Below are positions 33,338-34,323 of a stretch of 64,000 nucleotides of DNA, piece after piece; position 1 is the first letter of the stretch; every line of letters starts with the position of its first letter. The DNA comes from Escherichia coli. GTDB lineage: Bacteria; Pseudomonadota; Gammaproteobacteria; Enterobacterales; Enterobacteriaceae. Made by a program: the position numbers and the translations under genes. The notes under the pieces were generated by a model. The model made no database searches. It had not been told where the DNA came from and saw only the letters and a list, made by a program, of their open reading frames with translations. The DNA lies in assembly GCF_003334335.1 (NCBI RefSeq), contig NZ_QOWQ01000023.1. One strand, given 5' to 3'.

Positions 33338-34228
33338 ATGGCAATGGTCCAACCGAAATCGCAAAAAGCTCGTTTATTTATTACTCACCTGCTACTGCTA
33401 CTTTTTATCGCAGCGATTATGTTCCCGCTGCTGATGGTCGTCGCTATCTCGCTGCGTCAGGGAAACTTTGCGACCGGCAGCCTGATCCCGGAGCAAATCT
33501 CCTGGGATCACTGGAAACTGGCGTTAGGTTTTAGCGTTGAACAGGCTGATGGTCGCATTACGCCACCGCCATTCCCGGTACTGCTGTGGCTGTGGAACTC
33601 GGTAAAGGTCGCCGGGATTTCCGCGATTGGCATTGTGGCGCTCTCCACCACCTGCGCCTACGCTTTCGCCCGTATGCGCTTTCCAGGCAAAGCGACGCTG
33701 CTGAAAGGAATGCTGATTTTCCAGATGTTCCCGGCAGTACTTTCACTGGTCGCGTTGTATGCGTTGTTTGATCGTCTGGGTGAGTACATTCCATTCATTG
33801 GCCTGAATACTCACGGCGGCGTAATTTTCGCGTATCTGGGTGGGATTGCGCTGCATGTCTGGACCATCAAAGGCTATTTCGAAACCATCGACAGTTCGCT
33901 GGAAGAAGCTGCTGCGCTGGATGGTGCGACACCGTGGCAGGCCTTCCGCCTTGTCCTGTTGCCGCTGTCAGTACCGATTCTGGCGGTGGTATTCATCCTG
34001 TCGTTTATCGCTGCCATTACTGAAGTTCCGGTCGCGTCGCTGTTACTGCGTGACGTAAACAGCTACACCCTGGCCGTGGGGATGCAGCAATACCTCAACC
34101 CGCAAAACTACCTGTGGGGTGACTTTGCCGCCGCTGCCGTGATGTCTGCATTACCGATCACCATCGTCTTCTTGCTGGCTCAACGCTGGCTGGTCAACGG
34201 CCTGACGGCAGGTGGTGTGAAAGGTTAA
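33338..34228 (+). CDS. malG: maltose ABC transporter permease MalG (296 aa)
   Basis: [35 protein letters not shown]... Confidence 0.96.
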
Positions 34229-34323
34229 AGATGTTGTTCTGCCAATGTTATGCCGCTGCACCCTCAACTTACGTTATCCCAACTTGTGACTGTTATTCGG
34301 CGCTCCACGGAGCGCCTTTTTTT
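34220..34323 (+). ncRNA. candidate 3'UTR-derived sRNA (MalH-like) at the malG 3' end
   Basis: About 95-nt 3' UTR ending at the malG terminator; position matches the reported malG 3'UTR sRNA; 5' boundary not inferable from sequence. Confidence 0.4.
34299..34323 (+). terminator. intrinsic terminator of malEFG
   Basis: GGCGCTCC-ACGG-AGCGCC followed by TTTTTTT. Confidence 0.85.

Follow-up and report, generated by a model that had tools for sequence, protein, structure and literature searches.

MalH, a known small RNA from the malG 3' untranslated region of Escherichia coli, and the conservation of its locus in Enterobacteriaceae

MalH among the Small RNAs Derived from mRNA 3' Ends

CpxQ, SdhX, NarS and SroC are Hfq-associated small RNAs (sRNAs) which originate by RNase E processing from the 3' untranslated regions (3'UTRs) of mRNAs ('type II' 3'UTR sRNAs; PMC9438474). 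MalH, released from the end of the malEFG mRNA, was listed in a 2022 review among the RNase E-dependent 3'-end-derived sRNAs (PMC9438474) and resembles these four RNAs in several respects: the terminator is common with the parental mRNA, there is no own promoter, a conserved seed is embedded in a variable 3'UTR, and expression is tied to that of the source operon. It differs from them in its targets, which are the porin genes ompC and ompA, and in its expression, which is unusually transient, being confined to transition-phase or maltose-grown cells.

A considerable part of the biology of MalH has already been described. Its length was determined by primer extension as 104 nt (Iosub et al., 2020; RNA Biol 2020/2021, PMC8081044). 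The RNA cross-links to Hfq and is found in Hfq CLASH and RIL-seq data and, for the Salmonella homologue, in RNase E TIER-seq data (PMC7213987), and chimeric reads join it to ompC, ompA and ptsH (PMC8081044). It is almost absent in glucose, increases about 35-fold in maltose and shows a transient peak when exponential growth passes into stationary phase; its pulse expression reduces ompC, ompA, ptsH, rseA and MicA (PMC8081044). GFP fusions carrying seed and compensatory mutations demonstrated that the regulation of ompC is direct, and polysome profiling revealed a decreased translation of ompC in the presence of MalH (PMC8081044). In a chromosomal double seed mutant grown in maltose, MicA was up by about 30%, lamB was down by about 20% and ompC was unchanged; in the same mutant malG mRNA increased about 1.6-fold and processing was impaired (PMC8081044). 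The lamB arm was left unresolved by the authors, since the seed mutant also disturbed processing (PMC8081044).

Three further groups of sRNAs are relevant for a comparison. MicX of Vibrio cholerae shares its genomic position, the end of malG, with MalH but, unlike MalH, has a promoter of its own, and no targets common to the two RNAs are known (PMC9438474). MicC and RybB are, like MalH, Hfq-dependent sRNAs that repress ompC through the same mRNA leader; unlike MalH, they are encoded by independent genes with their own promoters and respond to different regulatory inputs. Finally, an orthologue of MalH, named 'malG.psiE.IGR', has been detected by RIL-seq in Klebsiella pneumoniae SGH10, with the same binding site (PMC11347178).

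The malG 3'UTR and Its Correspondence with MalH

In the 64-kb stretch of E. coli DNA analyzed here in its full length (the window), the list of open reading frames (ORFs) places malF at 31764-33323 and malG at 33338-34228, both on the plus strand. The malG gene, annotated as such in all matching E. coli genomes, encodes a protein of 296 aa, has its TAA stop codon at 34226-34228 and is the final gene of malEFG, the parental mRNA of MalH; the next gene, xylE, starts at 34600 on the same strand. From the sequence of this region, the original prediction had described a tail of about 95 nt after malG, closed by a strong terminator at 34299-34323, and had proposed a MalH-type locus at 34220-34323. 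The untranslated tail was found to measure exactly 95 nt (34229-34323), a hairpin followed by T7 lies at precisely those terminator coordinates, and the proposed span matches the published 104-nt MalH to the base. The published 5' end was placed on the window by means of the stated length of 104 nt and of the RefSeq feature.

On the plus strand of the window, MalH thus spans 34220-34323 in its 104-nt form, which takes in the final 9 nt of malG (two sense codons and the stop codon). The region 34190-34350 is identical to E. coli K-12 MG1655 at 161 positions out of 161, and the RefSeq annotation of MG1655 contains an ncRNA ('malH, b4807, small regulatory RNA MalH') at 4242531..4242633 on the minus strand, i.e., on the strand of malG. 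This 103-nt feature overlaps the final 8 nt of malG and its sequence is that of 34221-34323 in the window. Because of this identity, and of the coincidence with the RefSeq ncRNA, the segment 34220-34323 is almost certainly malH, the 3'UTR-derived sRNA of the maltose-uptake operon, which is Hfq-dependent according to the literature. The segment agrees with that of K-12 in position, strand and length, in every one of its 103-104 nt, and in its seed and terminator, no difference being detectable by sequence, and expression of MalH in the present strain would be expected from this identity. The earlier statement that an Hfq-associated 3'UTR sRNA from the end of malEFG had been reported in E. coli is likewise borne out, both by PMC8081044 and by the RefSeq malH entry. 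MalH is, in fact, an RNA published since 2020, treated in reviews and annotated in the reference genome, and its presence here is not a discovery.

Neither a permissive Rfam search of the region nor a gathering-level search of the whole window returned a family matching the malH locus. The permissive matches at the locus (Rfam 15) comprised TarB (18.7 bits, E = 0.94), suhB (E = 6) and snoR64, all of them noise with E-values of 0.94 or worse; the terminator hairpin accounts for the matches of TarB and suhB. TarB (RF02538) was rejected, its score being compared with a gathering score of 80 and its alignment resting on the terminator hairpin alone. Elsewhere in the window, gathering-level matches correspond to a lysine riboswitch (43333-43529, plus strand), STnc430 (41145-41294, plus strand), 5S rRNA (63795-63910, minus strand) and five naRNA4 elements (27460-27530, 31689-31759, 41360-41430, 58338-58415 and 58436-58513, minus strand). 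The five naRNA4 matches are presumably REP-derived, and one of them, at 31689-31759, lies in the malE-malF intergenic region.

The Rho-independent terminator of malEFG, which also forms the 3' end of MalH, occupies 34299-34323 on the plus strand and consists of a stem-loop at 34299-34316 and a U7 tail at 34317-34323. The stem, GGCGCTC/GAGCGCC, contains seven pairs, six of them G-C, and encloses a 4-nt loop, with a hairpin energy of -13.3 kcal/mol. A lax terminator scan remained at background level, with 2 sites found and 1.8 expected from shuffled sequences. With strict criteria (a perfect 7-bp stem with at least six G/C and T7 within 2 nt), the MalH terminator was the sole match on both strands of the window, where 0.02 would be expected per shuffled window. 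The predicted fold of the 104-nt RNA (-22.1 kcal/mol, z = -0.74) is not better than that of shuffled sequences; a weak 5' hairpin is its sole element besides the terminator, and 34250-34298, with the seed region, is left mostly open. Such an open body is what would be expected of an Hfq sRNA, and the hairpin plus U7 represents, by its sequence, an Hfq-type 3' end.

Four segments can be distinguished upstream of the terminator, all on the plus strand. The 5' part, 34223-34246, is specific for Escherichia and is replaced by GTTTCATCGTT... in other genera. It is followed by the seed, or block 1 (34248-34260, UUAUGCCGCUGCA), with the core GCCGCUG at 34252-34258, and by block 2 (34260-34269, ACCCUCAACU), whose CCTC is retained in at least 90% of the 77 distinct sequences that were aligned from other species. 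Block 3 (34283-34294, CUUGUGACUGUU) lies immediately upstream of the terminator; its TGTG is retained in at least 90% of the same sequences, and TTGTGAC/GTGACTG was found under 17 of 26 genus-level labels. No published target has been assigned to block 3, which may be an Hfq-contact module or a second seed. MalH also contains an internal near-repeat, CCUCAACUU at 34262-34270 and CCCAACUU at 34279-34286.

Base Pairing of MalH with Its Targets

Since ompC and ompA are located outside the window, pairing was computed against the K-12 leaders. The seed (34248-34260) forms with positions -50..-38 of the ompC 5'UTR (UGCAGUGGCAUAA) a contiguous helix of 13 bp with one G.U pair, which was equalled by 11 of 2000 shuffled sequences. 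The duplex is extended by the adjacent ACCCUCA, in block 2, pairing with UGAGGGU, and the energy of the whole seed block reaches -30.1 kcal/mol. The main seed binds further upstream on the ompC leader than the published 'stem 2' site of MalH, which overlaps the MicC site (PMC8081044). In a local complementarity alignment, 34223-34246 faces ompC -37..-15, and this Escherichia-specific stretch is the probable partner of the 'stem 2' that was described as poorly conserved (PMC8081044). The 5' extension peculiar to Escherichia would in this way add a second helix with ompC. Taken as a whole, the ompC arm of the regulation by MalH is well supported.

The other targets gave less distinct results. 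In the case of ompA, the seed block, extended by block 2, pairs at the very 5' end of the leader (-25.8 kcal/mol); the contiguous helix, however, was not above chance, being reached by 1226 of 2000 shuffles, and the ompA arm is based on the published CLASH and reporter data only. The Shine-Dalgarno region of ptsH (-19..-8) is complementary to two related sites of MalH, 34262-34271 and 34277-34288: ptsH -17..-8 can form a 10-bp helix with the region of block 2, and -19..-8 a helix of 12 bp, three of them G.U, with the second site, which adjoins block 3. This complementarity was equalled by 55 of 1000 shuffles and is suggestive only. Both copies of the near-repeat (34262-34270 and 34279-34286) are complementary to the ptsH Shine-Dalgarno sequence AAGUUGGGG, and the repeat may account for the distinct region of pairing with ptsH to which a supplementary legend refers (PMC8081044). 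As for MicA, no complementarity with MalH beyond chance was detected in the contiguous-helix test (728 of 2000 shuffles), and a direct sponge mechanism was dropped on this ground. Because this pairing is at chance level, the effect on MicA, and hence also the lamB arm, is probably indirect, and the MicA/lamB arm as a whole is uncertain. Two other measures were set aside: duplexes computed with RNAduplex over the whole length of MalH and either ompC or ompA were over-extended (z = -2.3 and -0.75, respectively) and were discarded as uninformative, and a lenient Smith-Waterman complementarity score remained at shuffle level, so that the contiguous-helix statistic was used instead.

The best explanation is the course of events described in the literature for the identical sequence. 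MalT and CRP-cAMP switch on malEFG when maltose is present and glucose is exhausted. RNase E then degrades the polycistronic mRNA, and its terminal fragment, carrying a 5' monophosphate, survives because it is bound by Hfq. MalH pairs with the 5'UTRs of ompC and ompA, chiefly that of ompC, thereby lowering the level or stability of the mRNA as well as its translation. It also lowers MicA, directly or, more probably, indirectly, which should relieve the repression exerted by MicA on the maltoporin gene lamB. Nothing in the sequences analyzed here contradicts the published explanation of MalH.

Conservation of the Locus and Its Variation

For the comparison across genera, one genome per species was scanned with a degenerate pattern for the C-terminus of MalG, which gave 112 loci; together with the window, 113 3'UTRs were examined, 104 of which were usable, i.e., had enough sequence and a recognizable terminator. 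The motif GCC[AG]CT[GA] occurs between the malG stop codon and the first terminator in 94 of these 104 3'UTRs, in 85 of them within 80 nt of the terminator. Moreover, an unbiased count of the k-mers shared among 26 genus-level labels ranked GCCACTG first (24 of 26), followed by GTGACTG/TTGTGAC (17) and CCTCAAC (16), so that block 3 is conserved nearly as widely as the seed. In the alignment of the 77 distinct sequences, 34248-34260, 34260-34269 and 34283-34294 stand out as conserved, while the spacers between them are rich in substitutions, indels and insertions. In the species sample, the seed motif is absent from Photorhabdus, Providencia, Celerinatantimonas and some Pantoea.

The seed itself has changed in one lineage. 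GCCACUG, the perfect complement of CAGUGGC in ompC, is the form present in nearly all genera. The variant GCCGCUG, in which the pair with ompC is kept as G.U, occurs in E. coli, in E. albertii and in a few others; the Escherichia A-to-G change thus turns an A-U pair into a G.U pair within an otherwise near-invariant seed. Likewise, the first 25 nt or so of E. coli MalH are specific for Escherichia. The unit composed of the seed, about 50 nt and the terminator would be the ancestral functional module, because it stays together across the Enterobacteriaceae.

The terminator helix is also under comparative support. Over the 77 distinct sequences, which come from other species, the helix has 87% of its cells paired and double-sided changes in 42 of them; its covariation score of 0.217 compares with 0.107 in shuffles and was reached by none of 500 shuffles. 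The stem occurs as GGCGCTC/GAGCGCC, GGCGGCC/GGCCGCC, AGCGGCC/GGCCGCT, GGCGATC/GATCGCC or GGCGGCT/AGCCGCC in different species. RNAalifold recovered just three terminator pairs from the 77-sequence alignment, owing to a one-column shift in one clade, and the helix was therefore scored explicitly. With blocks 1-3 conserved, the spacers variable and a covarying terminator common with the mRNA, MalH shows the features that define the RNase E-processed 3'UTR sRNAs.

Where the locus has taken up large insertions, these mostly precede the seed; in the rarer case they separate it from block 3. Klebsiella and Raoultella (eleven loci) have an element of about 100 nt between the malG stop codon and the seed, and Citrobacter and Salmonella a small hairpin upstream of the seed. 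The inserts that part the seed from block 3 are ERIC-like elements and occur in Lelliottia, Phytobacter and some members of Kosakonia and Enterobacter; besides the eleven Klebsiella and Raoultella loci, seven further malG 3'UTRs were recorded with mobile-repeat insertions. Two tandem copies of the seed motif (A/T)TGCCACTG are present in a few species, namely Citrobacter sp. 18056, Enterobacteriaceae bacterium 89, a Pluralibacter MAG and Winslowiella. The K. pneumoniae orthologue is comparable to E. coli MalH in its location in the malG 3'UTR, its seed core and its seed-to-terminator module; the locus examined here (L113) reads AATGCCACTGCTATCCTCAAC...TTTGTGACTGTTG and then continues into the terminator. 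Klebsiella differs from E. coli in the additional 100 nt or so between the stop codon and the seed, in the A in place of G in the seed, in the terminator stem AGCGGCC/GGCCGCT, and in having psiE instead of xylE downstream.

Of 5426 complete E. coli genomes, 5423 contain the 131-nt segment 34200-34330, and 5364 have it with at least 99% identity. A natural disruption was found in one genome, that of E. coli PCP06102, which has IS903B inside MalH (at about 2577 of its locus, L118, equivalent to about 34276 in the window); the insertion lies between blocks 2 and 3 and parts the seed from the terminator. IS1 is present in the malG-xylE intergenic region of at least 14 E. coli genomes (L119, from E. 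coli S1; H1-H14), at about 34355-34365 in window coordinates, tens of bases downstream of the MalH terminator, outside the sRNA and in the likely promoter region of xylE. Furthermore, xylE is missing from about one third of the complete E. coli genomes. In these, the last position similar to the window is precisely 34323, the final T of the MalH terminator (1617-1630 in L004), and the similarity begins again with ACTCCCGC, where psiE ends on the minus strand; in the window this sequence is reached at 36119, after the T-run of the xylE terminator. The xylE segment (34324-36118, about 1.8 kb) is thus flanked by two terminator T-runs and abuts the MalH terminator. The state without xylE looks ancestral, since malG is adjacent to psiE in E. 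albertii and in most of the other genera; in this arrangement the two genes are convergent and have the MalH terminator in common, its T-run being overlapped by the stop codon of psiE.

Origin of the 5' End and Alternative Readings of the Segment

The 5' end of the RNA, which the original prediction had left open between processing and an internal promoter, is attributed by the literature to processing. MalH is degraded by the 5'-monophosphate-dependent exonuclease Terminator ('TEX'), and RNase E has been implicated (PMC8081044); from this sensitivity it follows that the 5' end carries a monophosphate and that the RNA is a product of processing rather than a primary transcript. On the plus strand, 34223-34233 contains two RNase E-type RN↓WU motifs, GG↓UUA and AG↓AUG, identified by a motif scan, which predict 5' ends at 34225 and 34231, respectively. 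These positions agree within 1 nt with the published alternative ends, which lie 4 and 10 nt further downstream than the end mapped by primer extension (PMC8081044), and the two motifs are candidates for alternative processing sites. Independent transcription from a promoter inside the end of malG has a precedent in MicX, which has its own promoter at the same genomic location (PMC9438474), but it is highly improbable for MalH: besides the sensitivity to TEX, no sigma-70-like promoter was found on the plus strand in 33300-34323, the sole such site in 33300-34700 (34354-34381) being situated past the terminator, and no Rfam family, MicX included, matches even at E-values up to 10, apart from terminator-driven noise. 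MalH has, accordingly, neither of the two features that would assign it to MicX, namely a match to the curated covariance model or an own promoter. Even less credible, to the point of being negligible, is that the tail encodes a small protein. Two ORFs do exist mechanically on the plus strand, 34231-34341 (36 aa), whose ATG is 2 nt after the malG stop codon, and 34250-34357 (35 aa); however, both run across the terminator and end in a stretch for which about one third of the E. coli genomes have other DNA, the region of the ATG is absent in other genera, and indels in the alignment break the reading frame. They were consequently judged spurious.

A more serious objection is that the segment is only the malEFG terminator with an inert 3'UTR, the detected RNA being a decay intermediate devoid of any function in trans. 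MalH is by definition a degradation intermediate, the effects of the chromosomal seed mutant were modest, with ompC unchanged (PMC8081044), and the overall fold is not above that of shuffled sequences, as reported above. This reading is nevertheless very unlikely, and largely refuted by the reporters with compensatory mutations, which show a direct regulation of ompC (PMC8081044); it also fails to account for three blocks conserved outside the terminator over about 25 genera with the spacers free to vary, for the duplication of the seed in several species, and for the orthologue recovered by Hfq RIL-seq in Klebsiella (PMC11347178). The conserved blocks could instead act mainly in cis on the malEFG mRNA, through stability, protection of the 3' end or loading of Hfq, and the increase of malG mRNA and the impaired processing in the double seed mutant suggest that the region does influence its parental mRNA. 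As the main function this is improbable, though less so than an inert fragment, since it leaves unexplained the complementarity to ompC as well as the chimeras with ompC, ompA and ptsH and the regulation by plasmid-expressed MalH (PMC8081044). A role in cis is compatible with the function of MalH in trans, as an addition to it and not as a replacement.

With MalH as a trans-acting sRNA, the comparative data can be extended, tentatively, to a broader proposal, which is possible but on balance rather doubtful: MalH could be an ancient three-block RNA of the Enterobacteriaceae (GCCACUG, CCUCAAC and CUUGUGACUGU, followed by the terminator), of which the published E. coli biology represents only a part, and in Escherichia the A-to-G change in the seed, together with the new 5' arm, could have retuned the set of targets. 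Only three points are new here, namely block 3, the seed change and 5' arm peculiar to one lineage, and the structural polymorphism of the surrounding DNA; to our knowledge, the A/G split of the seed, the Escherichia 5' arm, the placement of the insertions and the duplicated seeds have not been spelled out in the papers on MalH. These comparative additions are small: they define the conserved core of the family and identify the lineage-specific portion of the RNA in E. coli. From a physiological perspective, MalH couples the induction of the maltose transporter to a reduction of the general porins and, probably indirectly, to more maltoporin, and the conserved block 3 could guide the search for targets in other enterobacteria.
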